Positions 1,194-60,782 of a DNA stretch of 64,000 nucleotides are shown here, in pieces. Where the stretch lies: assembly GCA_019058315.1 (NCBI GenBank), contig JAHPZH010000005.1, positions 288,001 through 352,000 on the forward strand. The letters are read 5' to 3'. The notes beneath the pieces were generated by a model. It made no database searches. It saw only the letters and a list, made by a program, of their open reading frames with translations, and was not told where the DNA came from. The DNA comes from Candidatus Helarchaeota archaeon (GTDB lineage Archaea > Asgardarchaeota > Lokiarchaeia > Helarchaeales > RDOG01). Both the position numbers and the translations under genes were made by a program. Position 1 is the stretch's first letter; each line of letters opens with the position of its first letter.

Positions 1194-1694
1194 ATGACAG
1201 ATATTGAAGAAGTAGATAAAAGATTTGAGTCAAAAATTAAAGAATTAAAAGAGATTCTACCAGAACATTATAAGAAAGATATGAGCTCACCGAGAAATTG
1301 CGCTGCTTGGACTGTTGCAAGTATTTTAGATATTTTAGGAATTGATAACCTTAACATTATTAACATGGCTACACCCTTAGCCGTAGTTGGTGGAAATTGT
1401 GGCGCATTGGAAGGCGGCTTAATGATGGTGGGCTTAATTCTCGGGAAAAAAGGAAAAAAACCCTTTAATCATTTGGTTGCAACTATAGAAGGATTAAAAT
1501 TTGTGAAAGCATTTGAAAAAGAGTTTGGTTCAATTAAATGTAAAGATTTAACCGGTCTTGATTTATTGACTGAAGAGGGACAAAAAGCTTATGTTAATGA
1601 AAATATCTGGGAACAAAAATGCTATAAACATGTTATTGGTGCAGTAAAGACCATTAGAGATTTATATAAACGAAAAATTGCTAAAATAATTTAA
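1194..1694 (+). CDS. C-GCAxxG-C-C family putative redox protein
   Basis: NCAAW, GNCGALEGG, IKCKDLTG, KCY; ATG at 1194 preferred over TTG at 1149. Confidence 0.8.
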   Translation: MTDIEEVDKRFESKIKELKEILPEHYKKDMSSPRNCAAWTVASILDILGIDNLNIINMATPLAVVGGNCGALEGGLMMVGLILGKKGKKPFNHLVATIEGLKFVKAFEKEFGSIKCKDLTGLDLLTEEGQKAYVNENIWEQKCYKHVIGAVKTIRDLYKRKIAKII

Positions 1695-1766
1695 TAAGAT
1701 TATTATTAAATACAAATTTTCAATTATTTATTTAAAAATTTAATAGACTTTAATGGACGAATAATT

Positions 1767-2285
1767 TTGGTCACAGTTGAGGAAGTAGAGAGACATTTTG
1801 AACTAAAAATTAAAGAATTAAAAGAAAATTTACCTTTGAAATATAAAAAGGAAAAAATTCAACCCCGAAATTGTGCTGCTTGGACTATGGCTAGTTTATT
1901 AGATATTCTGAACATTGAAGATACCAAAATTAATACTAATTTTATAAATATGGCATCCCCTTTAGCTGGAATTACTAGAATTTGTGGGGCTATTGGGGCT
2001 GGATTAATGATTATAGGATTAATTGTAGGAGAGAGGGGAGAAAGAGAAATTCCTCAATGGACAGCGGCAGCCGAGGGGATGAAGTTTGTAAGGCGTTTTG
2101 AAAAAAAATTTGAATCAATACAATGTCCTGTTCTAACAGGTCATGATTTACTAACATCAGAGGGAATGAAAGCATATATAAAGGAAGATGTTTGGGGAAA
2201 AAAGTGCTACTTGCATGTAACAAACGCAATTGAAATAATCGGTAGATTATATAAAAAAAAGATTGTAAATATCATTAAAATTTAA
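1767..2285 (+). CDS. C-GCAxxG-C-C family putative redox protein, tandem paralogue
   Basis: NCAAW, ICGAIGAG, IQCPVLTG, KCY; clearly similar to the upstream gene. Confidence 0.8.
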   Translation: MVTVEEVERHFELKIKELKENLPLKYKKEKIQPRNCAAWTMASLLDILNIEDTKINTNFINMASPLAGITRICGAIGAGLMIIGLIVGERGEREIPQWTAAAEGMKFVRRFEKKFESIQCPVLTGHDLLTSEGMKAYIKEDVWGKKCYLHVTNAIEIIGRLYKKKIVNIIKI

Positions 2286-45932: not shown

Positions 45933-47111
45933 TCAAATTCTTCCTATTGTCTCAAATGGTATTTTATGACAAAACGGACAATCAACTGCACTATACATTT
46001 TTATCCAGCTTTTTAGATCTGATTCAAATTCTGGTTCAAACTCAAATAAGAGTTTTAATACTTGCGCTTTATTTAGTAGATAATTACCTTTCCAATTAAA
46101 ATTGACATAGTTTTTTTCATTTTTTACTTCAAAGTGAATATTTTTTTGTTGTTCAGTTTTTTCAAAGCTCAAATTGATCTCAAGCTCTTTATGATTATCA
46201 TACCAAATGCCACAACTAATTGGGTGTATATTTTTATGGATTTGGTAATTTAATTCCAAAGTATCTATATTTTCTAAATTTATTTGATAGAAAAAACAAG
46301 CCATGTAAGTTTTTTTTGTCTTTGGACAAGAATATAATCTCTTTTGATCAGCAATTTCAATAATATATGACTCTCCGATATGTAATTTTTGGAAAATATT
46401 CTTAAAAGTATCATGGGGAACAAGAGCATTTACTATATTTAGTTTTTTATTTTGATGTTCATAAATCTCGGGTTGGATTTCAAAAGGCTGTCGATTTTGA
46501 TCCAAAATCTGTAGATTGTACTTATCAGATTTTGAAAAAAGTGTTATATAATTAATGGGAGGTGTTATATTTGACAATTTCAAATAATTTCTTTTCTCAT
46601 TATAATCCATAAGACCATCTTTTTGGATTTTCCAATCAACAGATTTTTTTAATATCCATGTGTATCCTGTATAATTTGTAAAGAAGCTTGAAAGTTCTTC
46701 ATATTTTTTAAACCAGAATTCTTTTTTTCCTTCCAAGCTTGGTTTATCTTCATCTAAAGGTAAGAGTCGTAACAAACCATCTATCTTTTCTTTTATTCTC
46801 CAGAAATCAGAGATTACACGATATCTTTTTCTCTTTATTTTTTCAATTAAGCCAATATTTTTTAAATCATTTAAAGCACGACGGATATTATGTATTGGTT
46901 CATTTAATTTTTCACTCAATTCCTCTGTAAACTCACCCTTCTTGCTATGCAACAGTTCTTTATACAGATTTAGGGCTAGACCCTTTTTTCCACCTATAAC
47001 CCTTCTCCATGCTCCAATTACATTTTTACTAATCTTATTAAAATCAAGAGCTAAAGTTAAAAATCTCGAAATCTTATTTTCATACGGTTTATACTCTCTT
47101 ATTTCAGCCAT
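45933..47111 (-). CDS. wHTH DNA-binding protein with an unrecognised C-terminal domain
   Basis: TEELSEKLNEPIHNIRRALNDLKNIGLIEK (wHTH); terminal CPFC; divergent from the ArcS-core gene. Confidence 0.65.
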   Translation of the reverse strand: MAEIREYKPYENKISRFLTLALDFNKISKNVIGAWRRVIGGKKGLALNLYKELLHSKKGEFTEELSEKLNEPIHNIRRALNDLKNIGLIEKIKRKRYRVISDFWRIKEKIDGLLRLLPLDEDKPSLEGKKEFWFKKYEELSSFFTNYTGYTWILKKSVDWKIQKDGLMDYNEKRNYLKLSNITPPINYITLFSKSDKYNLQILDQNRQPFEIQPEIYEHQNKKLNIVNALVPHDTFKNIFQKLHIGESYIIEIADQKRLYSCPKTKKTYMACFFYQINLENIDTLELNYQIHKNIHPISCGIWYDNHKELEINLSFEKTEQQKNIHFEVKNEKNYVNFNWKGNYLLNKAQVLKLLFEFEPEFESDLKSWIKMYSAVDCPFCHKIPFETIGRI

Positions 47112-47239
47112 TTTTATTCACAATTTAATATATTTCTAATAAAAATAATTATTCATTCTAATGTATTACATTTTTTGTAATAAAAAGTTCTTTAAAAAAA
47201 TAGTTTTTTATATATTAAGACAATAAATAAAAGATTCTG

Positions 47240-47875
47240 GTGTATATTTTGAACGATAATCCACTTTTGTTCTTAAAAGGTGTCGGTAAGGATTATGTAG
47301 ACAACCCTATTTTCAATAATGCTCATAAAAAAATTATTGCTGAATATAAACCTTCTATTTCTGGTAAAATTGCGCTTTTTACTGTCTGTTCATGGGGTAA
47401 ACCTTATAGACAAAGCTATATTCATTATTTCATATTGAGATCCTTAATTAAAGCAAATTTATTAGATAAATTACAATTAATTGTTATTACTAATGCAGGT
47501 GTGGTCCCATATGAGTTAAGTGATAATTATCCATATTTTGCATATGATTGGGATCCACTACTTGAAACTCCAAAAATAAAGAAATTATATATTGAAATAT
47601 TAAATAAAAGATTAAATGAATTTTTAGAACATAAGAAGAAGTACTACAGTAAATTTTGCTGTTACTTAAGACATCAAAGCGAATCTTATCAATCTATAAT
47701 AAATATTGGGTTTGCATTAAAGTTAAAAATCCCAAATTTCGCAATTCATGAAGATAAAATCACACAAGACGAAATATCTCAAGTTTCTTTAGATTTCTAT
47801 GAAGATCATGATTTGGTCTTAATTACTAAACGTAATCTGGATAATCTTGTGAATAAAATAAAGGAGATAATTTAA
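47240..47875 (+). CDS. Stand-alone archaeosine synthase (ArcS) core / DUF5591 protein
   Basis: VCSWGKPYRQSYIH fits the ArcS signature (P)C-X3-KPY-X2-S-X2-H; GVVPYEL..YPY..YD; no TGT-like or PUA domain. Confidence 0.8.
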   Translation: MYILNDNPLLFLKGVGKDYVDNPIFNNAHKKIIAEYKPSISGKIALFTVCSWGKPYRQSYIHYFILRSLIKANLLDKLQLIVITNAGVVPYELSDNYPYFAYDWDPLLETPKIKKLYIEILNKRLNEFLEHKKKYYSKFCCYLRHQSESYQSIINIGFALKLKIPNFAIHEDKITQDEISQVSLDFYEDHDLVLITKRNLDNLVNKIKEII

Positions 47876-48600
47876 TGCTAGGTTCATGGTTTGATCAGGA
47901 TAAACAGGAAATTACTGTTATTTTAACTAATTTTCCATGTTCCTATAATCAATGCACTCATTGCCCTTTTGATATTGAAAGTATAGATGACGAGAAAGAA
48001 GTTACTATCACAAATAAACAAATAATTGATGAAGCTATAGAAAAGGTCGTGGAATTTGACCTTAAAAGAGTGAAGATTTTTAATGGAGGCAGTTTTCTTG
48101 AGTTACCAGATGAGGTATTTCCAATCCTTAAATCAATAACGGAGGGTAAGGATGTAAGCATAGAATCTAGACCAGAATTTCTCTCCAAAAAATCAATAGC
48201 ACTCATTTTTGATAAATTAAAACCTTTAAAACTTAATGTTTTCATTGGTTTTGATTCTGCGGATGATAATATTCGAAATGTCCTCCTTAATAAGGGTATT
48301 CCAAAAAGTGAATTAGACCGTATTTTAAATGAATTAAAAGATATTGAGAATGTCCAATTCTTTTCATATGTATTATTTGGTATCAGGGGAGTATCTGAAG
48401 AATCAGTTAAAGAAAGTGTTCTCTATTTTAATAATTATTTAAATGGAGTTTCCGCTATTGAATTTAGAGAAAATCCAAAATCTGAATTAAAACATCAAAA
48501 AATATCAGAATCGCTTAAAAAATTCCTAATTCAGAATTGTTTAAATGTTGATTTTATAGGGGATGATGATGAACAATGGTTATTGCCCGAAGAATCTTAA
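47875..48600 (+). CDS. RaSEA-like radical SAM protein (archaeosine synthase beta subunit family), shortened
   Basis: CSYNQCTHCPF, VKIFNGGSFL, IESRPEF, IGFDSADD.IR..LNKG; translationally coupled to the ArcS core (TAATG). Confidence 0.75.
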   Translation: MLGSWFDQDKQEITVILTNFPCSYNQCTHCPFDIESIDDEKEVTITNKQIIDEAIEKVVEFDLKRVKIFNGGSFLELPDEVFPILKSITEGKDVSIESRPEFLSKKSIALIFDKLKPLKLNVFIGFDSADDNIRNVLLNKGIPKSELDRILNELKDIENVQFFSYVLFGIRGVSEESVKESVLYFNNYLNGVSAIEFRENPKSELKHQKISESLKKFLIQNCLNVDFIGDDDEQWLLPEES

Positions 48601-48638: not shown

Positions 48639-49961
48639 TTACATAACAACTTCTGTAAGGAATTCTCCAATTTTACCCCTGATAGTTTCTGATGTTACCT
48701 CTCTTGAATCATAGGGGTCACAAGCTATAATTAAAGATGGAACACCAGTCTCTTGACGAACTGATTCGGCAATTAATCGAGTAATTGAGTATGCATGCTT
48801 ACAAGCGAATTGGATTGGAATTATGACACAATCAATCTTATAATCCTTAACCCAGCGCATTACATAGTCCACATAGTATTCTGCGGGGCCTCTACACGTT
48901 CCAATCATGGAGAAGTCCAGAGTACCCTTTGCCAAGCTCTCAAAACATTTCTCTATTGTAGATGTATCATGAGGTTGGACTGGGTAAAACCCTAACAGGT
49001 CCATTATTATAGAAGCTTTGTAAGTCTCTTCTAGCCAAGGGAATAGCTCCCTATCGAAAAAGACGTGTGTATATGGCCAGGCTATGCGTATATTTTCGCC
49101 AGGGACGCCAGCTACTCCGTTTTTAACATTGTTTGCTGCATTATCTCTAATTAATTTTGTTGCTTTAACACCAACTTCAGTACCACCACGGGTGACCATT
49201 GTAAGAAAATTTTTCATAGGTTCAAGGCTGTTAACGGGACAAGGGACAGTTTTTAGGAGTTCATTGAATTCCGAGATATTTTCACGTGCTTGATTAACCC
49301 AGATCATTGTTTGTTTAAATTTCTCTTCATCTAATTTTCTATTCGTTTGTTGTTCTAACCAGGATATGAAATATTTTAATTGATTTAAAATATAATCCAA
49401 TGTTTTTTCATCAAAAAACTCGCTATTTGGGTCATTATAATCCCAATATGGAATATCAATGTTAAACTGGGGCACTCCTGTTAAATATTGAAAAACTTGG
49501 TAAGTCGTTGCTATTGAATTACACGGAGTCGAAAGAAAGAAAATAATATCAGGAATGGGTGCTATTCCATTTTCAAAAGCACCTATTAAAGGTCTTTGTG
49601 CATTACATAGAGTTGGGTTATCACCATATCCTATTTGATTTGTAAGATCGATGTAAAATTCATTTGCATGCATTGGAGCAAGACCAACACTAAAAACCTC
49701 TTGCATAAGAGGTTCTAAATCCATTGCATGAAATAATTCAGGACCATAATTAAATGGATGCATTACAATTGGTTTTTCTTTAATTCTAGCATTACCTACA
49801 TCAACGAACATATCTAGTACCATTTCCATAAATGGATCATATGGCTCGCTTTTAGCACCCACGAGAAATCCATCAAATAAAATTTTCCAAAGCTTAAAAT
49901 CCTTACCCCATTTTGCCCTTCTGTATTGCTTATATTTATTATACCATGGTTCCTCCATCAT
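48639..49961 (-). CDS. 2-hydroxyacyl-CoA dehydratase/benzoyl-CoA reductase family, alpha-type subunit
   Basis: LCNAQ, PCNS, ACKH; LMQE. Confidence 0.85.
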   Translation of the reverse strand: MMEEPWYNKYKQYRRAKWGKDFKLWKILFDGFLVGAKSEPYDPFMEMVLDMFVDVGNARIKEKPIVMHPFNYGPELFHAMDLEPLMQEVFSVGLAPMHANEFYIDLTNQIGYGDNPTLCNAQRPLIGAFENGIAPIPDIIFFLSTPCNSIATTYQVFQYLTGVPQFNIDIPYWDYNDPNSEFFDEKTLDYILNQLKYFISWLEQQTNRKLDEEKFKQTMIWVNQARENISEFNELLKTVPCPVNSLEPMKNFLTMVTRGGTEVGVKATKLIRDNAANNVKNGVAGVPGENIRIAWPYTHVFFDRELFPWLEETYKASIIMDLLGFYPVQPHDTSTIEKCFESLAKGTLDFSMIGTCRGPAEYYVDYVMRWVKDYKIDCVIIPIQFACKHAYSITRLIAESVRQETGVPSLIIACDPYDSREVTSETIRGKIGEFLTEVVM

Positions 49962-50018
49962 ATTACCTCAATTAAACATTTCCCAATATGAAAAATAAAA
50001 AAAATATCGATAATTAAT

Positions 50019-50804
50019 CTATTTCTTCTTTTCATACTCTTCTTTAGCTAGAAGAGCTGCACCGACTGCTCCAACAATCTGAGGGTCAACAGGTAACGGT
50101 TTGGTTTTTACTCCTAACCTTTTCTCTAAGTATGTAACCACACCAATATTTTTTGCGACTCCGCCAGTTATTGTTACATCTTCTTCAAGACCAACTTTAT
50201 AGACCTGAGACATGATTCTAGCTGCGATAGCATCATGTATACCTGCAACGATATCAGCAACTTCGGCACCATCAGCTATACGACTTACAACTTCTGTTTC
50301 AGCGAATACACTACATTGAGCAGTAATAGCTATTGGGCTTTTTGCTTGAAGAGAGATAGGACCGAGCTCTTCAAGCTTTAACTCTAGAGTTCTAGCCATA
50401 ACCTCTAAAAATCTCCCTGTTCCGGCAGCACATTTATCATTCATAGCAAAGTCAAGGAGCTTTCCATCCTTACTAACTTTTATAACTTTAAGATCTTGAC
50501 CACCCATATCAATTATCGTTCTTATCGATGGAATAAACGAATGGGCACCTTTTCCATGACAAGTTATTTCAGATATGTTTTTATCGGCAAAAGGTATTTT
50601 CACACGACCATAACCTGTTCCAACAATAAATTCTATATCCTCTTGAGTTAAATTTGATTTTTTTAGAACCTCATCCATAGCATTTCGAGCAGTTCTTTCG
50701 GGTTTAACAGTAGTTGGGACTATGCTATAGGCTATCATTGAACCGTTTTTATATATAACAGCTTTACCGGTCAAAGAACCGACATCACAACCTGCAATAA
50801 TCAT
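50019..50804 (-). CDS. ATP-dependent [4Fe-4S] activator (HgdC/HadI/BzdQ-like, ASKHA fold)
   Basis: GCDVGSLTGK, TGYGR, EITCH, DMGGQD, NDKCAAGTGRFLE, CSVFAETEV, GGVAKN. Confidence 0.95.
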   Translation of the reverse strand: MIIAGCDVGSLTGKAVIYKNGSMIAYSIVPTTVKPERTARNAMDEVLKKSNLTQEDIEFIVGTGYGRVKIPFADKNISEITCHGKGAHSFIPSIRTIIDMGGQDLKVIKVSKDGKLLDFAMNDKCAAGTGRFLEVMARTLELKLEELGPISLQAKSPIAITAQCSVFAETEVVSRIADGAEVADIVAGIHDAIAARIMSQVYKVGLEEDVTITGGVAKNIGVVTYLEKRLGVKTKPLPVDPQIVGAVGAALLAKEEYEKKK

Positions 50805-50818
50805 TAATAAAACCTCTA

Positions 50819-52198
50819 TTACATGACTACTTCCGTTAAAAACTCTGAAATCCTTCCTCTGATAGTTTCAGCGGGTACTTCTCTTGCATCGAATGGATCA
50901 CACCCGAAAATTAAAGACGGAATTCCAGTTTCTTCCTTTACAACTTCTGCCATTATCCGAAGCATAGAATAATTATGTTTGCAAGCGAATTGCATTGGTA
51001 CAATCACACAATCGCATTTATATTCCTTAACCCATCGTACAACGTGATCTATATAGAACTCTGCTGGACCCCTACAACTACCGACCATAGACATGTCTAG
51101 TGTTCCTCTAGCTAGGCTTTCAAAGCATTTTTCTACTGTAGATGTATCGTGAGATGGAACGGGGTAAAATCCTAGGAGATCCATAATAGTAACTGCATTA
51201 AAATTCTGTTCGAGATATGGAAATAGGTTCATCTCATCGAAGAAAACGTGGATGTATGGCCAAGCAATCCTGATTTTCTCGTCAGCTATGCCTCCAACTT
51301 TCTTCTTAACATTTGCTGATGCAACATCACGGAGTGATTTAGTTACCTTGACAGCCCCTTCAGTACCTCCGCAAAGTGCCATAGTAAACCAATTACTAAA
51401 TCCTGCTACACTGTTAACGGGGCAGGGAACTGCCTTTAACAGTTCTTGAAATTCCATTATATTTTCACGTGATTGATTAAGCCAACCCATTGTTTGTTTA
51501 AATCTTTCTTCTTCAAATTTTTGATTTGTATTCTTCTCCATCCAAGATACAAGGTTCTTTGACTGATTCAAAATATATCCTAATGTTTCTTCATCGTAAT
51601 AATCCTTGAATTGTTTTCTTTCTGGGTCATACTCCCAATATGGGATGTCCATAACGAATGTTGGAAGGTTTCCAACTAAATGTTGAAAGACTTGATATGT
51701 TATGGCTATAGAATTACAAGGAGTACTGGTAAAAAATAGCAGATCTGGGATAGGTGCAGCTTCTTTGAAATATGCTCCAATTAGAGGACGAGAAGCATTA
51801 CAGATCGTAGGATTATCACCGAATCCCATTTCATCAGTAAGGTCAATGTAAAATTCGTTCATACGGACGGGAGATAAGCCCACACTAAATAATTCTTGCA
51901 TAAGAGGTTGGATCCCCATCGCATAGAATATTTCTGGACCATAATTAAAAGTATGCATAATAATTGGCTTTCCTTCTACTCTTGCACTGCCAACATCAAG
52001 GAAAACATTTAGCATCATTTCCATAAATGGAACAAGTGGTTGATCCTTCGTTTGAGCAAGCATTGCACTGTACATACCCTTCCATAAACTAAAGCCCTTA
52101 CCTTTAATCTTTTCTCGACCCATTTTTTTATACTTTTTAAAAGTTTCCGCGTCCATTATTTTAGTATCGCCACCTTCACTACCAAATATACTTGCCAT
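50819..52198 (-). CDS. 2-hydroxyacyl-CoA dehydratase/benzoyl-CoA reductase family, alpha-type subunit
   Basis: ICNAS, PCNS, ACKH; LMQE. Confidence 0.85.
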   Translation of the reverse strand: MASIFGSEGGDTKIMDAETFKKYKKMGREKIKGKGFSLWKGMYSAMLAQTKDQPLVPFMEMMLNVFLDVGSARVEGKPIIMHTFNYGPEIFYAMGIQPLMQELFSVGLSPVRMNEFYIDLTDEMGFGDNPTICNASRPLIGAYFKEAAPIPDLLFFTSTPCNSIAITYQVFQHLVGNLPTFVMDIPYWEYDPERKQFKDYYDEETLGYILNQSKNLVSWMEKNTNQKFEEERFKQTMGWLNQSRENIMEFQELLKAVPCPVNSVAGFSNWFTMALCGGTEGAVKVTKSLRDVASANVKKKVGGIADEKIRIAWPYIHVFFDEMNLFPYLEQNFNAVTIMDLLGFYPVPSHDTSTVEKCFESLARGTLDMSMVGSCRGPAEFYIDHVVRWVKEYKCDCVIVPMQFACKHNYSMLRIMAEVVKEETGIPSLIFGCDPFDAREVPAETIRGRISEFLTEVVM

Positions 52199-52202
52199 TT
52201 TT

Positions 52203-53330
52203 TCATCTCGCCTCTAATACTTCTAAGAATGCTTGAATTCGGGTTTTTATAGCTCCAGCTCCACTAAGCACATACTCTCTTTCCAATTCGAGGGATGGAA
52301 TACCTTGTTCTTTTAAATCTCTCCGAAGCATGAAAATTTCACCCCACCAGAATGGACAGAACTTCATCCTCTGGAATAAAACACCATCAACATTATATTC
52401 TTTAATCATATCATTCATAAATTTCAACCTTTCAGGATATCCATCTGTCATACGTGGGCATGGCACCTTTGATAAATAGCGCTTAGCAAGAGCTTCTAGT
52501 GGATCTCCTGTTTCATCAACAAGATCCCAGAAATATCTAGATCCAAAACATAGTGAGTCCATAACTACAACACCACCAAGGTCCTCAATAAGCTTCATGT
52601 ACTCTGGATCATCCAACATACTTCCAATTATCATAATTCGTGCTTTAGAATTAGAAATATCTTTTTTAGCTTCCGCATCTTTTAATAATTGGGTTAAAAG
52701 TTCATTAAATTTATCTCTAGGAATCGTAACTCCTGCCACAGTAACATTTAACATTTCAGTACCAGTAATGGGAGGGGGATCACGTTTTCTAAGCTCATAT
52801 ATTTTTTTTAGAAGTTTACGGGACTCATTATAAACTTTAATTGAGCGTCTAAGATTATCATCTGTAATCTCTACTCCAAAAGCCTTCTTCAAACTATCCT
52901 TGAATTTAACTAATTCATGAGTAAACCAATCAATAGTGACATCATTAACAAAACAGGGAATACTTAAGAAATGATGGAAAGGAAATGGAGCCTTATATCT
53001 TATATTATCATAAAGACGACGGATTTGATCGCAAGTATTACCACAAACAATACCATCAATGAAATTGTATTGTTTTCTGTTTGCCAATTCAAGACAACAA
53101 CGAGTAAAACTACATGTAGTAGCAGACATATAAGCATCACCCATTGGAGTATCGGTACATTCCATTCCTATTGCTCTCATTCTAATTGGAAGAATATCTG
53201 CAGCGTAAATAAGCTCATCCGGTATGTAACTACAGAAATAACCTAAAACCTTTTTTCCTTCTTTTCTCCAGTTATCAATCCAAGAATTTGAAAGAGGAAT
53301 TGCTTGAGCAAATTCATTAATATTAGACAT
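52203..53330 (-). CDS. 2-hydroxyacyl-CoA dehydratase/benzoyl-CoA reductase family, beta-type subunit
   Basis: GKKVLGYFCSYIPDEL, TCSF, NTCDQIRR, KFCPF, KTRIQAFLE. Confidence 0.88.
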   Translation of the reverse strand: MSNINEFAQAIPLSNSWIDNWRKEGKKVLGYFCSYIPDELIYAADILPIRMRAIGMECTDTPMGDAYMSATTCSFTRCCLELANRKQYNFIDGIVCGNTCDQIRRLYDNIRYKAPFPFHHFLSIPCFVNDVTIDWFTHELVKFKDSLKKAFGVEITDDNLRRSIKVYNESRKLLKKIYELRKRDPPPITGTEMLNVTVAGVTIPRDKFNELLTQLLKDAEAKKDISNSKARIMIIGSMLDDPEYMKLIEDLGGVVVMDSLCFGSRYFWDLVDETGDPLEALAKRYLSKVPCPRMTDGYPERLKFMNDMIKEYNVDGVLFQRMKFCPFWWGEIFMLRRDLKEQGIPSLELEREYVLSGAGAIKTRIQAFLEVLEAR

Positions 53331-53486
53331 AATTAAAACCTTCAAATTAAATAAATTGAAAATGAATTTATGTTATATAAGAAAAACCAAAGTAACCTTA
53401 AAAAAATAATGATAACTCTTAGTTATTTCACAATTATAGTTTATTATTTACTAAATTCCGAATAAAATTGAGGCGAGGTAAAGAAA

Positions 53487-54806
53487 TTGGAAGATGAAGT
53501 ATATAAAAAGTATAAAAAAATTAGTAAAGAAAAATGGGGAAAAGATTTTAAATTATGGAAAATTATGTTTGATGGGATTCTGATAAGAGCGAAGACTGAA
53601 CCTTTTACTCCAGCTACTGAATTGTTACTCAATTATTTTGTGAATGTTGGTAGATCTAAAATGAAAGGTAAACCTCTTATAATGCATCCTTTTAACTATA
53701 GTCCTGAATTATTTCACGCTATGGGCATCGAACCGCTCATGCAGGAGATTTTTTCAGTCGGTCTTGCTCCACTTCACGCAAATGAATTTTATATTGATAT
53801 AACAAATCAAATAGGTTATGGAGATAATCCGACTCTTTGCAATGCACAGCGACCTTTAATCGGTTCTTATATTCAGAAGATGGCGCCTATTCCGAATCTT
53901 CTTTTTTTTCTATCTACACCATGTAATTCTATCGCCACCACTTACCAAGTTTTTCAAAACTTAACCGGAGTACCCCAATACAATGTTGATATTCCCTATT
54001 GGAACTATGATGACCCAAATAGTGAGTTTTATGATGAAAAAACATTGGATTATATTTTAGATCAATTGAAACGTTTCATATCCTGGTTAGAACAACAAAC
54101 GAATCAAAAATTAGATGAAGAGAAATTTAAACAGACAATGATCTGGGTTAATAAAGCACGTGAAAATATAATGGAGTTTAATGAATTATTAAGGTCTGTT
54201 CCATGTCCCGTTAACAGTATGCAATCTGGTGTAAATTTTTTAATAATGATAACCAGTGCTGGTACTGAAAATGCCGTTAAAGCGTCTAATTGGATACGTG
54301 ATCAGGCGGCAGAAAACGTCAAAAACAGAATAGCTGGCGTCCCTGACGAAAAGCTCAGAATAGCTTGGCCTTACACTCATGTTTTCTTCGATGCAGATTT
54401 GTTTCCTTGGTTAGAAGAAAACTACCATGCTGTTACAATAATGGATATTTTAGGTCATTATCATGTAAATCCTCATGGTACCTCAACCATTGAAAAATGT
54501 TATGAAAGCTTAGCTAAGGGTACATTGGACTTATCTATGATTGATACATGCCGTGGACCGGTTGAATTTTTTATAGACTACCTTATACGCTTTGTTAAAG
54601 ATTATAAAATTGATTGTATAATTATTCCAATCCAATTTGCTTGTAAACATGCATATTCATTTTTAAGAGTAGTTTTAGAAGAAGTTCGTAAAGAAATCGA
54701 TATACCCTCATTGATGGTCCCTTGCGATCCTTATGATTCAAGGGAAGTAACTTCGGAAACAATTAGAGGAAGGATTGCAGAGTTTCTTACAGAAATTGTA
54801 ATCTAA
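53487..54806 (+). CDS. 2-hydroxyacyl-CoA dehydratase/benzoyl-CoA reductase family, alpha-type subunit (divergently oriented)
   Basis: LCNAQ, PCNS, ACKH; close paralogue of 48639-49961. Confidence 0.85.
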   Translation: MEDEVYKKYKKISKEKWGKDFKLWKIMFDGILIRAKTEPFTPATELLLNYFVNVGRSKMKGKPLIMHPFNYSPELFHAMGIEPLMQEIFSVGLAPLHANEFYIDITNQIGYGDNPTLCNAQRPLIGSYIQKMAPIPNLLFFLSTPCNSIATTYQVFQNLTGVPQYNVDIPYWNYDDPNSEFYDEKTLDYILDQLKRFISWLEQQTNQKLDEEKFKQTMIWVNKARENIMEFNELLRSVPCPVNSMQSGVNFLIMITSAGTENAVKASNWIRDQAAENVKNRIAGVPDEKLRIAWPYTHVFFDADLFPWLEENYHAVTIMDILGHYHVNPHGTSTIEKCYESLAKGTLDLSMIDTCRGPVEFFIDYLIRFVKDYKIDCIIIPIQFACKHAYSFLRVVLEEVRKEIDIPSLMVPCDPYDSREVTSETIRGRIAEFLTEIVI

Positions 54807-54817
54807 AAGAGATTTCT

Positions 54818-55288
54818 TTAATAAGGTTTTGAAATTTCTTCCATAGAAATTTTCTTTTCCATTACGATAAATTTTTTTTCAAACCCATACTTATTAAATA
54901 GTTTTCCTTCTTTTTCTAAATCACGAACGTTAGTTTCGACCCTGCTAACTCCCATATTTTTAAAAAATTCAAACGATGCATCAATTAATGCTTTTCCAAC
55001 ACCTTTTCCACGACTAGTAGGAGAAACCACAAAATTAGAAATATTACCATAAGTTTCTACAAAAGGAGAGACCAAAACTTCAGCTATAATCATTCCCACA
55101 ATTTTATTTTCGTCTTCCGCTATCAACATACCTTGTTGATTATACTTATCTATAGTTCGCCTTTGAATACCATTTTTAAATCTTTTCTCATCAAATTGAG
55201 AACCGGTAACTTTACATAATTCGACCATTAAGTTTTTCATGCCTTTATAATCTTCATTACTCTCTGGGTTATATACTCTTGTTTTCAT
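54818..55288 (-). CDS. GNAT family N-acetyltransferase
   Basis: FVVSPTSRGKGVGKALI acetyl-CoA-binding motif; LFNKYGF. Confidence 0.9.
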   Translation of the reverse strand: MKTRVYNPESNEDYKGMKNLMVELCKVTGSQFDEKRFKNGIQRRTIDKYNQQGMLIAEDENKIVGMIIAEVLVSPFVETYGNISNFVVSPTSRGKGVGKALIDASFEFFKNMGVSRVETNVRDLEKEGKLFNKYGFEKKFIVMEKKISMEEISKPY

Positions 55289-55369
55289 TTCTCATCCCGT
55301 CAAATTTTATTTTTATTACAATTAAAAAAAAAAGATATTTGAATTTATTTATTTTCAAATATAGCCTAG

Positions 55370-57394
55370 TTATGCAACGGGAATATCTGGTTTTCCGTAC
55401 TTTTCTCTAATTTTTTGTCTTAATATCTTTCCTACAGGGGACATAGGAAAATCTTCAGCAAAAATTACTGATCTTGGTTTTTTATATCCTGCAATTTTCC
55501 CTTCAACAGTTTTAACTACTTCCTCTTTTGTCATAGTTTCTCCTTCTTTTAGGACTACTACAGCACGAACTGTTTCTCCCCACTCTTCATCCGGAACTCC
55601 AATTACAGCGACTTGATCGATTTTTGGGTGTTCTAGGAGGATTTCTTCCACCTCTCCTGGAAAAACTTTCTCGGCTCCAGTATTTATACATTCTTTCTTA
55701 CGTTCTACTACATAGACTTCTCCATTTTTAATGTAACCCAAATCTCCACTATGAAGAAACCCTTGTTCGTCGATTGTTTGTTTAGTTTTTTCTGGATCTT
55801 TATAATATCCTTTCATTACAGATCCACCCTTATAGCATAATTCACCAATTTCGCCTTCAGGTAATGGATTGTTATTCTCGTCAACAACCTTCATTTCGTG
55901 TCCTTCTAGAATTGTACCCACACAGCGATCTTGTACTTCCTTTGGATCTCCATCTATCCGCATTGTAGCCACTGGGGCCATTTCCGTTTGACCGAACGCG
56001 TCGACTACGATTGCATTTGGGAAATATTTTAAGATTTTTTGTTTATATTTAGCGCGTAATACAGCAGCACCTGATAAAGCAATAGCTACAGACCCCAAAT
56101 CGAATTTTTTATCGGTTTTTTCAAGATAATCCAAAACTCGTTTCCACATAGTTGGAACTAGAAATATTTGTTTTAATTCTTCACGTTCTACCATTTCCAA
56201 AAGTTCTTCACTACTGAATCCTTTACTCTTTAAGAATACGATAATCGAACCTCGAAACATCCAAGATATTAAGAACACAGCATAGGAAGCTAAATGGAAT
56301 AGTGGAGGGACCATAATTGATTTATCTATATCCTCTTCTTCGGGTCTACTCCTCATTGCCTTTTTTAATCTATTTGCTACCTCTTTTTCACCCGTGACTT
56401 TAATCCTTCCTTTCATCATCAATCTTATAATTTTAAACATAAGCTTGATTTTTCCCCATCTACTATAAGCTAATGGTTGAATGTTAGCCAAATCTCTTGC
56501 TTGGTCAGCAACTCCGAATGTGACTATTCCATGATATTGCCCTTCAGGTGGTATACCTACAAATGGCTTTATTTTATCTTCTCGAATTGCAAATGTCATA
56601 ACAGGAAGTGAAGGACCCTTTTTTGTGGGATTTTCTAAAACAATTACTTTTTCCTTCATATCAGGATCTTCATAAAAAATATCTGGAATCCATGAAACTG
56701 TAATATAATTTTCAAGCATTCTTCTCTGTAATTCATTTTTCGCAAATATGGGATCATCTAGATCTTTTATAGGAGGCAAAATTGCCCCTAGGAAAGCCAT
56801 TGCACTCTCTTCATTGTATAATATATTATCATAAGTTAACATTACACCTTTAGGCCTCCCAGTTGTACCTCCAGTGTAAATTATCACAGCTACATCTCTA
56901 TCCTTTACGTCTACTTTAATCACTTTATCTTTAGCCTTATCGATAAATTTATCATAATTTATCATATCTTTTGGAGTATTTGGACCGTCATGAATCAAAT
57001 ATTTTACCTTGGGAATCTTATCTCGTATTTTTTGAAGCTCCTCCATGGCATCGTCATCAAAAATGAAAATTTTGGAATCACTATTATTTAAGAGAAACTC
57101 CATTTCAGAAGCGACATAACGGAAATTCATAGGGACAGGGATTGCGCCAAGGGATTGTACAGCCAAGTTGTTTATTACGAATTGGGGAGAGTTATAACTC
57201 AGAAAACTGACTTTATCTCCTTTTTTTATACCTAAACTCCTTAATGCATTAGCTAATTTATTTATTCTTGTAAGTAATTGTTTCCATGTGTATTTTTCTT
57301 CACCATATATCATGGCGATACGATCTTTTGGGAAATATTTAGCTTTAATTAAAACTGCTTCAAAAAATTTACCTAATTGGACCATAAAATTCAC
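55370..57394 (-). CDS. AMP-dependent acyl-CoA synthetase with an internal inserted domain
   Basis: YTGGTTGRPKG, PLFH, FGQTE, GEL, GYY, SGDLG, RKKE..GAEKV.P.EVE, GKIL. Confidence 0.92.
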   Translation of the reverse strand: MNFMVQLGKFFEAVLIKAKYFPKDRIAMIYGEEKYTWKQLLTRINKLANALRSLGIKKGDKVSFLSYNSPQFVINNLAVQSLGAIPVPMNFRYVASEMEFLLNNSDSKIFIFDDDAMEELQKIRDKIPKVKYLIHDGPNTPKDMINYDKFIDKAKDKVIKVDVKDRDVAVIIYTGGTTGRPKGVMLTYDNILYNEESAMAFLGAILPPIKDLDDPIFAKNELQRRMLENYITVSWIPDIFYEDPDMKEKVIVLENPTKKGPSLPVMTFAIREDKIKPFVGIPPEGQYHGIVTFGVADQARDLANIQPLAYSRWGKIKLMFKIIRLMMKGRIKVTGEKEVANRLKKAMRSRPEEEDIDKSIMVPPLFHLASYAVFLISWMFRGSIIVFLKSKGFSSEELLEMVEREELKQIFLVPTMWKRVLDYLEKTDKKFDLGSVAIALSGAAVLRAKYKQKILKYFPNAIVVDAFGQTEMAPVATMRIDGDPKEVQDRCVGTILEGHEMKVVDENNNPLPEGEIGELCYKGGSVMKGYYKDPEKTKQTIDEQGFLHSGDLGYIKNGEVYVVERKKECINTGAEKVFPGEVEEILLEHPKIDQVAVIGVPDEEWGETVRAVVVLKEGETMTKEEVVKTVEGKIAGYKKPRSVIFAEDFPMSPVGKILRQKIREKYGKPDIPVA

Positions 57395-58837: not shown

Positions 58838-59506
58838 TTACTTTTCATATTCAATCGGATCAATTAGTCCTGCCATTTCAAAACCATTTAAGCGTAATAG
58901 GCATGAATCGCATTGTCCACAAGCTTTTTTACCACCTTTATAACAGCTCCAAGTTTTTTCATAGGGAACATTTAATTTTGACCCAAGTTGAATAATCTCT
59001 CTTTTATCCATATGGATAATTGGTGTTTTAATGTTAATATTTTGTGCTTTTGATCCTAATTGAATAGCTTTTTGCATCGCTTTTATGTATTCAGGACGGC
59101 AATCTGGATAACCAGAATAATCTATGAAGTTCATACCTGCAAATATAGTATCAGCACCAATTATTTCAGCATAAGCAGCTGCAAAAGCTAGAAAAATAGT
59201 ATTTCTCATAGGAACATAAGTTACAGGAATTTCACTTGTCATCTCTTCCATTTCTCTGTCTAAAGGAACCTCAATATTTTGATCGGTAAGAGCCGAACCC
59301 CCAATTTGAGTTAAATCAACTTTTAATATCTTGTGTTCTTTAGCTCCCACTGAGCTTGCAATATTTTTTGCGGCATCTAATTCTCTTTTATGTCTTTGTC
59401 CATAGTCAAAAGAGAGGGCATATACTTCATAGCCTTGATCCTTTGCATAATATATTACTGTAGATGAGTCCAATCCTCCAGAAAGTAAGCAAATTGCCTT
59501 TGTCAT
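58838..59506 (-). CDS. queC: 7-cyano-7-deazaguanine synthase
   Basis: SGGLDS, FDYGQRH, TYVPMRN, YPDCR, SCY..CGQCDSC. Confidence 0.96.
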   Translation of the reverse strand: MTKAICLLSGGLDSSTVIYYAKDQGYEVYALSFDYGQRHKRELDAAKNIASSVGAKEHKILKVDLTQIGGSALTDQNIEVPLDREMEEMTSEIPVTYVPMRNTIFLAFAAAYAEIIGADTIFAGMNFIDYSGYPDCRPEYIKAMQKAIQLGSKAQNINIKTPIIHMDKREIIQLGSKLNVPYEKTWSCYKGGKKACGQCDSCLLRLNGFEMAGLIDPIEYEK

Positions 59507-59519
59507 TCATTAATCCCCT

Positions 59520-59984
59520 TTATAAATCCCCATATGCAGCCCAAGAGCCCGTATTTTCATTAAGCATTATTTGAAATTTTTTAACATTAAGCCTTTCTTT
59601 TAAAATTGAATAGATATATTGAGCTAAACATTCCGCAGTTGATGCATCAATTGGTATTTGGGCTATATCTTCTTTGGGTATTGAATAGAATTTCTCAGTC
59701 TTTTTAATTTTAATGTCTAAATTATTTCCATTTTCATTAACATGGATAGCAGGATTTTTCATAGGTAGAATTAATTTATGATCCAGATGTTCTATCGATT
59801 CTAGAATTATCTTTTTTACTTTTAAAAAATCAATAATCATAGAATTATTATCCAAATCCCCAAAAATCTCAATTTTAACATAGTAATTATGGCCATGTAT
59901 CCGAGAACATTTATCATGTTCAATTAAAAAGTGGGCAGCACTGAAATTTAGTTTTGGATCATCTAAAATTAATTTGTGACTCAT
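59520..59984 (-). CDS. queD: 6-carboxy-5,6,7,8-tetrahydropterin synthase
   Basis: FSAAH, CSRIHGHNY, IDF, LDH, STAE. Confidence 0.92.
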   Translation of the reverse strand: MSHKLILDDPKLNFSAAHFLIEHDKCSRIHGHNYYVKIEIFGDLDNNSMIIDFLKVKKIILESIEHLDHKLILPMKNPAIHVNENGNNLDIKIKKTEKFYSIPKEDIAQIPIDASTAECLAQYIYSILKERLNVKKFQIMLNENTGSWAAYGDL

Positions 59985-59996
59985 TTTATCATCTCA

Positions 59997-60782
59997 TTAT
60001 AAATATCCTAGAAATTTATGAGTTTGAACAGAAATTCCTATTTGATCTGGGGTGAGATACTTAGCTGCAGCTTCTGTTAATTTGCAAATATGTTGAAAAT
60101 TAGGAATTATTGCTTTATTTTTTTTCGCACTTACTATTTGAATAGCTAATGGAACATCTAATTCTGATAATCGACTGGCATACCATTCAATATTTTCAAC
60201 TTTTGTGGAAATTGTTACCACAACTTTCGCAAAAATCTTCTTCTGTGCATTTACAAAAAATTTTATGGTCTGAAATTCTTTTTCCACTATCTTTTTCCAT
60301 TCTTTTAATTTGATTGCCGTTTCATCTTTTATATCACAACAACAATAATCAAAAAACTCGACAATTTTTTTAGCATTTTCAGGTAAAGATCCATTAGTTT
60401 CAAGATAAAGTTTAAAATCTGATAATTGTTCTACCAACTCGCATAAAAATTCTATTTGGTAAAGAGGTTCTCCACCTGTAATACTGATTGAATGGAGATC
60501 TGGAGTGGAGATTTTATTAATCCAATTTAAAATTAATTCCACATCAACAGGATTTTGTAGATTGATGAAATCACCACATCCAGGAGTCTTTTCCACTTTA
60601 AAATCTTTGATTTTCACAGTTTGTGCAAACGGGGAATCACACCAGACACATGGATGCGAATCTTTAGAAAAATTGCAACCTGCAAAACGAATGAAGCATT
60701 GTCTTTTACCATAACAGCTACCTTCTACTGCAAACCCTTCGCCTTGAAATGAAGAAAAAATTTCTACTAAGTATCCTGGCAT
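59997..60782 (-). CDS. queE: 7-carboxy-7-deazaguanine synthase (radical SAM)
   Basis: EIFSSFQGEG, FIRFAGCN..CVWCDS, TGGEP, LETNG, QTHK; in an operon with queD and queC. Confidence 0.92.
   Translation of the reverse strand: MPGYLVEIFSSFQGEGFAVEGSCYGKRQCFIRFAGCNFSKDSHPCVWCDSPFAQTVKIKDFKVEKTPGCGDFINLQNPVDVELILNWINKISTPDLHSISITGGEPLYQIEFLCELVEQLSDFKLYLETNGSLPENAKKIVEFFDYCCCDIKDETAIKLKEWKKIVEKEFQTIKFFVNAQKKIFAKVVVTISTKVENIEWYASRLSELDVPLAIQIVSAKKNKAIIPNFQHICKLTEAAAKYLTPDQIGISVQTHKFLGYL

Follow-up and report, generated by a model that had tools for sequence, protein, structure and literature searches.

A mini-ArcS and a short QueL-related radical SAM enzyme as a predicted compact archaeosine synthase, with a candidate regulator, in a Helarchaeota archaeon

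The stretch analyzed here, called the window, was 64,000 nt of the forward strand of contig JAHPZH010000005.1 (positions 288,001-352,000; assembly GCA_019058315.1) from Candidatus Helarchaeota archaeon. The genome that holds it (G000; 5.79 Mb, 12 contigs, 94% complete) carried two overlapping genes, one for a small protein related to the archaeosine synthase subunit ArcS, here called mini-ArcS, and one for a short radical S-adenosylmethionine (SAM) enzyme. A gene for a winged helix-turn-helix (wHTH) protein was divergent from this pair (Table 1). All three open reading frames and their divergent arrangement were found as the initial annotation had described them. The start of the radical SAM gene overlapped the stop of the mini-ArcS gene in the sequence TAATG, and GGAG was located 8 nt upstream of the start.

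Table 1. Genes and features discussed in the text. Plain positions are those of the window. ORF, open reading frame; aa, amino acids; AF2, AlphaFold2; preQ0, 7-cyano-7-deazaguanine.
Feature	Position	Strand	Basis or predicted role
wHTH protein, 392 aa	45933..47111	-	ORF; weak HTH matches; AF2 model; candidate regulator of the divergent operon
Divergent promoter core with palindrome and TTTAAA box	47160..47198		alignment of five orthologous spacers; candidate operator
Palindrome TATTACA-N5-TGTAATA	47164-47182		
Overlapping palindrome AATGTA-T-TACATT	47160-47172		
TATA-like box TTTAAA	about 47192-47197		
mini-ArcS, 211 aa, DUF5591/ArcS C1 core only	47240..47875	+	PF17884; predicted lysine:preQ0 (nitrile) transferase
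Radical SAM enzyme, 241 aa, RaSEA/QueL group, Cx4Cx2C	47875..48600	+	predicted preQ0-Lys C-N lyase
Region after the pair, with a dehydratase set and its activator	48639-57394		dehydratase set also in L065
queC, queD, queE-like radical SAM gene (preQ0 synthesis)	58838..60782	-	NCBIfam; 10 kb downstream, separate operon
arcTGT (TgtA), 542 aa	L009:1471-3099	+	
TGT_C2+PUA protein, 171 aa	L022:1441-1956	+	
Tgt (373 aa) beside QueF, contig C3	L014:304-1425 and 1447-1827	-	TIGR00430, 461 bits (Tgt)
QueA, contig C5	L052		357 bits
TGT fragment, 324 aa	L010:955-1929	+	PF01702, 32 bits
Arrestin-like protein	L010:79-717	+	Arrestin_N and Arrestin_C matches
Fused protein	L054:2409-3767	+	radical SAM-DUF5591
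Fused protein	L055:3313-4770	-	radical SAM-DUF5591
Fused protein	L056:2452-3807	+	radical SAM-DUF5591
DpdA, wHTH homologue and QueT	L051 (G041:C4:1209968-1214062)		also L049, L050
Region of a relative compared with 48639-57394	L013:6508-10627		
ORF of 132 aa, Lokiarchaeota contig	L012:5734-6132	+	no family match

The gene order was kept on five related contigs: radical SAM gene, mini-ArcS, divergent wHTH and FAD oxidase, followed by a CCG protein and a dehydratase where the contig continued. The wHTH proteins of these contigs were 64-87% identical to that of the window, and the metagenome-assembled genomes (MAGs) with close homologues were labelled Helarchaeota, Hodarchaeota, Lokiarchaeota or Promethearchaeota. 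The recurring gene order therefore indicated that the module was vertically inherited in a Helarchaeota-type clade. The locus had been described as an AT-rich island, and this did not hold. The GC content of the 2.7-kb stretch was 27.3%, compared with 36-38% in the neighbours and a genome mean of 30.5%. This was the 12th percentile of 2.7-kb windows and within the normal range of the genome; the GC-rich flanking metabolic genes were the unusual part. Horizontal transfer, suggested by an AT-rich island, was rejected on the basis of the normal-range GC content and the conserved synteny.

The 211-aa protein had PF17884 (DUF5591) as its sole Pfam match (E 1.4e-9, 38 bits, over the cut-off), and no TGT, TGT_C2 or PUA domain was matched in it by Pfam and NCBIfam profile searches. 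Its motif was C50-SWG-KPY-RQ-S-YI-H62. The initial annotation had reported a C-X3-KPY-X2-S-X2-H protein lacking TGT-like and PUA domains, which was borne out by these searches. C50, K54, P55, Y56, S59 and H62 were invariant across 14 homologues, and the residue before the motif cysteine was valine in the window protein and proline in crenarchaeal homologues. The NCBIfam ArcS models NF040592 and NF053620 matched at the C1 region, and their scores of 26-30 bits were far short of the respective cut-offs (440 and 600). Alignment with the C1 domain of a full-length Lokiarchaeial ArcS by hhalign gave a probability of 97 and 27% identity. The AF2 model had a predicted local distance difference test (pLDDT) score of 86, and its sole significant fold match in the PDB was 2q07 (AF0587), which was also a weak sequence match and carried the same Cys-KPY motif. 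Mini-ArcS is thus a predicted lysine:preQ0 transferase.

No Pfam match was found for the 241-aa radical SAM protein. Its best NCBIfam model was TIGR01210 (RaSEA), with 59.6 bits against a cut-off of 212 (E 2.8e-16, model positions 13-185 of 313). The radical SAM triad was C22-x4-C27-x2-C30, with all three cysteines invariant in nine homologues. The closest solved homologue was the queuine lyase QueL (PDB 6P78; E 1.2e-15), which was of the same size class and also had Cx4Cx2C. True members of the QueL clade scored 160-177 bits to 6P78, compared with 61 bits for the 241-aa protein. An exhaustive search gave about eight close cluster representatives of the short family, and the rest were RaSEA-type (300-390 aa, mostly Cx7-11Cx2C) or QueL-type. 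Two trees of radical SAM proteins were calculated, one with FastTree (128 rows) and one with IQ-TREE in quick mode (57 rows), both unrooted and with SH-type support only. In both trees, the short archaeal family (support 96-98) and the bacterial QueL clade formed one group with a support of 99, apart from RaSEA and from the fused type described below. The family of the 241-aa protein was sister to the QueL clade, not inside it. The term RaSEA-like with Cx4Cx2C, used in the initial annotation, was correct as to the best family and the motif; as a name it was imprecise, since the protein grouped with bacterial QueL apart from canonical RaSEA. The link suggests that one of the two lyases arose from the other and raises the question of the substrate, tRNA or free base; our claim is limited to the grouping itself and implies no direction of descent.

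RaSEA makes a C-N cut on preQ0-lysine analogous to that of QueL, and the 241-aa protein is a predicted preQ0-Lys C-N lyase. QueL (6P78; Yuan et al. 2019, via PMC11130926) shared with it the length class, the Cx4Cx2C motif and the sister position in both trees. QueL converts free queuine to 7-aminomethyl-7-deazaguanine (preQ1) by breaking a C-N bond (PMC11130926). The chemistry would be analogous in that the nitrogen stays with the side chain of the 7-deazaguanine after the cut. Unlike the window protein, QueL is bacterial, acts on the free base and is not coupled to a DUF5591 protein, and the short archaeal family is a clade of its own beside it. The salvage context typical of QueL (bacterial Tgt, nucleoside hydrolase) was not beside the 241-aa gene, whose neighbour was the ArcS core. 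Complex prediction for the two proteins of the pair gave a score of 0.01 and was not used as evidence either way.

Another of the closest known systems was ArcS-RaSEA of Euryarchaeota, which reportedly forms an archaeosine synthase complex in Thermococcus kodakarensis (Yokogawa et al. 2019, via PMC11298593). The two protein families, the gene order and the predicted step after arcTGT were the same. The C1 core has Cys-X3-KPY-X2-S-X2-H in both systems, and each is paired with a radical SAM enzyme from one common group. However, mini-ArcS had 211 aa compared with about 580-700 aa, and the TGT-like N-terminal domain was missing from it, as were C2 and PUA. Its partner had 241 aa compared with about 310-390 aa, carried Cx4Cx2C where Cx7-11Cx2C is the usual form, and fell outside the RaSEA clade. 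A stand-alone ArcS core was already known (Cui et al., PMC10516641). The pair is a real and conserved, predicted variant of an established system. Neither the short radical SAM partner nor its relationship to QueL nor the wHTH family was found described in the literature searched, of which coverage was partial. Three points appear to be new: the QueL grouping of the radical SAM protein, the wHTH family beside deazaguanine genes, and the origin of a stand-alone C2-PUA protein from a split arcTGT.

The deazaguanine genes of the host genome were inventoried. The sole other DUF5591 match was in arcTGT (542 aa; TgtA model, 490 bits), and neither a full-length ArcS nor a RaSEA over the cut-off was found in this genome. 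The search proposed in the initial annotation, for full-length arcS, raSEA, arcTGT and dpdA, thus gave arcTGT and showed the pair to be the only ArcS and RaSEA homologues of the genome. The genome had one plain QueC with weak PP-loop paralogues and no strong match of the Gat-QueC type. QueF of the host kept the NADPH motif ELKSLKLY, scored 129 bits with TIGR03139, over the preQ1-synthase cut-off, and adjoined a bacterial-type Tgt. The reading of this QueF as a QueF-like archaeosine synthase was rejected on these three features, and no QueF-like enzyme was found in the genome. QueF, the bacterial-type Tgt and QueA together are a predicted bacterial-type queuosine branch, and the same QueF-Tgt pair was carried by a second genome of the family (G121). 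As judged from this inventory, the mini-ArcS-radical SAM pair is the only candidate found in the genome for the last archaeosine step.

The queEDC genes noted 10 kb away from the pair were confirmed with a reservation on two of them. QueC had 240 bits and was over the NCBIfam cut-off; queD (QueD/6PTHBS, 74-89 bits) was below the cut-offs and the queE-like gene (QueE models, 28-49 bits) far below. The absence of tgt and dpdA from the window also held, and no TGT-family or DpdA match was found anywhere on its contig. The TGT-family genes of the genome were arcTGT, the bacterial-type Tgt and a 324-aa fragment only. The fragment covered the C-terminal third of the TGT fold only (ArcS model positions 102-238), and its neighbour encoded an arrestin-like protein.

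The arcTGT of the host ended after the C1-like domain. A separate gene for a 171-aa TGT_C2+PUA protein was located on another contig, between genes for a proteasome-activating nucleotidase and NAC. C2-PUA matches were found in 114 of the 121 sampled Asgard genomes (the host included), as a stand-alone gene in many of them, among these genomes with full-length ArcS. In other lineages, the C2-PUA part was fused to arcTGT of roughly 680-700 aa. The 171-aa protein was considered as a missing ArcS subunit and rejected, because it was present whatever the ArcS type and was fused to long arcTGTs. Its near-universal presence in Asgard archaea and its fusion elsewhere therefore indicate the split C-terminus of arcTGT, and this assignment appears to be a new point. 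The initial annotation had also considered that the pair might be the only ArcS and RaSEA of the genome, vertically inherited, and make archaeosine (G+) at tRNA position 15 with a separately encoded PUA subunit. This was largely what was found as to the only homologues and the vertical inheritance, but the PUA protein belongs to arcTGT.

The distribution of the pair was examined in other genomes. Radical SAM and mini-ArcS genes were adjacent in Helarchaeota-type, Lokiarchaeota and Desulfurococcaceae contigs. The radical SAM gene was coupled to an ArcS core in every locus examined for which neighbouring sequence was available; one contig ended too early. Most sampled Asgard genomes had full-length ArcS (ORFs of 615-800 aa). 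In sister Lokiarchaeial families, full-length ArcS was directly followed by a canonical RaSEA of 361-397 aa, a gene order as in the window. Within the Asgard sample, the short radical SAM family was found in the host only; beyond the sample, it was also present in G121 and on contigs of MAGs. Other Asgard families have small DUF5591 ORFs, which were rejected as the same system, with none of the 120 other genomes containing the short radical SAM family at E <= 1e-12. Judged by their length of 200-295 aa, these ORFs may be ArcS forms without the N-terminus, like AF0587.

Desulfurococcales mini-ArcS proteins were 40-45% identical to that of the window. The operon of a closed Desulfurococcaceae genome (G129) had the order queuosine-precursor transporter (TIGR00697, 178 bits), radical SAM, mini-ArcS. 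This genome had arcTGT, and no match was found in it for QueC, the QueF family, DpdA or bacterial Tgt. Its gene set would make up a complete route from salvage to archaeosine, and for the last step of this route the pair was the only candidate. In addition, single proteins of 451-485 aa with an N-terminal radical SAM part and a C-terminal DUF5591 part were found in three genomes of the order Desulfurococcales. Their radical SAM halves were a separate lineage from the short family in the tree and grouped with a 423-aa protein, which is probably also a fusion. This distant fusion shows that the two predicted activities work together.

These results also bear on whether the radical SAM protein could be a QueL-type salvage lyase that converts queuine to preQ1 for the bacterial-type queuosine pathway, with the DUF5591 protein unrelated or auxiliary. 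The bacterial-type Tgt beside a true QueF in the host and in G121, QueA in the host, and a match to 6P78 as strong as that to RaSEA would fit this view. However, the gene was coupled to the ArcS core wherever neighbouring sequence was available, the pair occurred in Desulfurococcales genomes showing only arcTGT and no bacterial Tgt or QueF, and the protein stood beside the QueL group. Queuine salvage by this protein is therefore regarded as very improbable.

With moderate confidence, we conclude that the pair is a compact two-subunit archaeosine synthase of the ArcS-RaSEA type that acts on tRNA. The chemistry, the tRNA substrate and the role of the regulator are what we infer. In the proposed mechanism, arcTGT, encoded elsewhere in the genome, would place preQ0 at tRNA position 15. 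The ArcS-core protein would then join the epsilon-amino group of lysine to the nitrile of preQ0, and the radical SAM partner would cut the lysine C-N bond, by which the formamidine group of archaeosine would remain. The tRNA-binding domains of classical ArcS would be dispensable because arcTGT sets the target specificity. Consistent with this, T. kodakarensis ArcS requires neither shape nor sequence of tRNA, its minimal substrate is the preQ0 nucleoside, and specificity comes from arcTGT (PMC11298593). Among the alternatives raised in the initial annotation, a minimal archaeosine synthase was thus the best supported, by the only ArcS and RaSEA homologues of the genome, the vertical inheritance and the gene order shared with five related contigs. 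As no other candidate was found in Helarchaeota-type Asgard genomes and several Desulfurococcales, the pair would fill part of a gap in the assignment of the last step. To our knowledge, archaeosine is near-universal in archaeal tRNA, and its last step is assigned only where full-length ArcS-RaSEA, QueF-like or Gat-QueC is present.

Several points weigh against this conclusion. Both proteins were far below the curated ArcS and RaSEA cut-offs, and the radical SAM protein grouped with QueL, a free-base enzyme, not with RaSEA. Profile searches found no recognizable RNA-binding domain in either protein. QueF-like enzymes could escape PF14489, and the 94% completeness of the genome limits the inventory on which the only candidate was named. 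The compact synthase is a predicted function for the whole family. In addition, no match for ArcS, mini-ArcS or RaSEA was found in four genomes (G122-G125, 82-93% complete) of two other families of the same order. DUF5591 was found in ORFs of 535-546 aa, the size of arcTGT, in two of these four genomes. In this group, the final step to archaeosine may be missing, optional or carried out in another way.

The QueL relationship keeps a free-base substrate alive. The pair might act on preQ0 that is yet to be inserted, as free base, as nucleoside or as nucleotide, and produce the archaeosine base or a preQ0-lysine compound, which arcTGT would insert or which would have another fate. The short radical SAM family and QueL agreed in size and in the Cx4Cx2C motif, and they grouped together with good support, separate from RaSEA. 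The lack of a detected RNA-binding domain and the Desulfurococcaceae operon with a base transporter are also consistent with such a route, and arcTGTs of Crenarchaeota without ArcS have active-site differences that might admit the G+ base (Bon Ramos et al. 2017, PMC5485725). However, canonical arcTGT does not use the G+ base (PMC5485725), and Fujita et al., who assayed the base too, named the preQ0 nucleoside as the minimal ArcS substrate (PMC11298593). The transporter linkage is equally expected if arcTGT first inserts imported preQ0. We therefore consider the free-base route unlikely, and synthesis on tRNA is kept as the favoured function.

Stand-alone C1 cores of similar size are known from viruses as ArcS2 (Vibrio phage nt-1, Sulfolobus virus STSV2; Cui et al. 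2023, PMC10516641). In a function of this type, a DNA transglycosylase would insert preQ0 into DNA (dPreQ0), the pair would convert it to the deoxy form of archaeosine (dG+), and the wHTH protein would be a DNA-binding component. Expression of the core-only ArcS2 of phage nt-1 together with DpdA2 gives dG+ (PMC10516641). The viral core-only homologues were 28-33% identical to mini-ArcS, and a wHTH homologue was found beside DpdA in one Asgard genus, as described below. However, viral ArcS2 works with DpdA, and no DpdA (NF041059) over the cut-off was found in the host, in G121 or in the closed Desulfurococcaceae genome. The three TGT-family genes of the host listed above offered no further candidate, no restriction or defence neighbours were seen, the synteny was stable, and G121 had the pair without the wHTH gene. 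In addition, the closest relatives of mini-ArcS were cellular archaeal proteins, and a radical SAM partner was not annotated at the one viral locus inspected. DNA marking is accordingly held to be highly unlikely, and the suggestion of DNA or another nitrile as the substrate found little support.

We also looked at the wHTH protein. Weak TrmB, Sta1 and Lrs14 HTH matches were located at residues 48-98 of the 392-aa protein. The TrmB HTH (PF01978) scored 22.5 bits against a cut-off of 25.6, and precomputed Pfam data list PF01978 for the crenarchaeal homologues. The AF2 model (pLDDT 77) consisted of a winged helix (about 29-106), a linker helix and an all-beta C-terminal domain (about 152-358). 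A probable N-terminal winged helix of TrmB type, the divergent placement and a palindrome at the promoter would be shared with TrmB/Lrs14-type regulators. In contrast to TrmB regulators, the C-terminal domain appeared not to be the TrmB sugar-binding domain; it had no family match in profile searches, and the HTH was below the Pfam cut-off.

The wHTH family was rare, with one true match among 201 sampled Thermoproteota, and searches with the single sequence and with a profile reached only Helarchaeota-type and two crenarchaeal lineages. Six Helarchaeota-type loci and two Desulfurococcales-type lineages had a homologue in divergent orientation to the pair. The one next to the operon of the closed Desulfurococcaceae genome was 23% identical over 351 residues (E 2e-20). 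In the second crenarchaeal lineage, the wHTH gene was followed by a divergent transporter and the start of a short radical SAM gene. A 41% identical homologue was found in Asgard genus g21 (three genomes, one genus) between DpdA and the QueT transporter. There, DpdA (405 aa, NF041059, 330 bits) was tail-to-tail with the wHTH gene, which was divergent from QueT. These genes are a candidate system for 7-deazaguanine modification of DNA encoded on an Asgard chromosome. G121 has the pair, but a wHTH homologue was not found in it, and the wHTH protein is therefore accessory, not a catalytic subunit. Travel of all three genes together thus applied to the Helarchaeota-type loci and Desulfurococcales, and not to G121.

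The palindromes of the divergent promoter overlapped each other. The TATA-like box came directly after the longer one, some 45 nt upstream of the mini-ArcS start. The palindrome block was the best-conserved part in the alignment of five orthologous spacers and is a candidate operator. The occurrence of the family beside deazaguanine genes in three unrelated contexts, together with the conserved promoter palindrome, points to a dedicated regulator of deazaguanine genes, which would be an accessory transcription factor acting at this palindrome, between the divergent promoters. Its probable ligand is a 7-deazaguanine compound, which the beta-rich C-terminal domain would sense. The regulated module of the initial annotation was supported and strengthened by this, since wHTH proteins of this family accompany deazaguanine genes in different phyla. 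Two results weigh against the regulator part. Foldseek with the model gave generic beta-sandwich folds only (M1 aminopeptidase N-domain, oligosaccharyltransferase (OST) subunits), with template modelling (TM) scores of about 0.3 and no ligand-binding homologue. In addition, neither the Desulfurococcaceae spacers nor those of DpdA/QueT showed the palindrome in this form. If the assignment is true, the family would regulate deazaguanine genes by means of a protein, for which no description was found in the literature searched. Bacterial preQ1 riboswitches would be a functional analogue, as the wHTH genes are likewise found at transporter and deazaguanine genes.

A joint reading was also considered, in which the pair makes the G+ base from free 7-deazaguanine (preQ0 base or nucleotide), a permissive arcTGT inserts it, and the wHTH protein is the first protein sensor of deazapurines, a counterpart of preQ1 riboswitches that controls transporters, synthase and DpdA. 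We hold this combination to be quite improbable.

Minor observations were made on the surroundings of the pair. In one relative (L013), the 4 kb or so after the pair held genes for an acetyltransferase, an acyl-CoA ligase and a histone, and then queC. The window and L065 had a dehydratase set with its activator in addition, placed after the pair and ahead of the acyl-CoA ligase and queCDE genes. The difference suggests that an insertion parted pair and preQ0 genes, or that L013 underwent a loss. Mini-ArcS and the short radical SAM gene of a Lokiarchaeota contig had an ORF of 132 aa between them, for which no family was matched. QueA was found near the mini-ArcS pair on a Lokiarchaeota contig.

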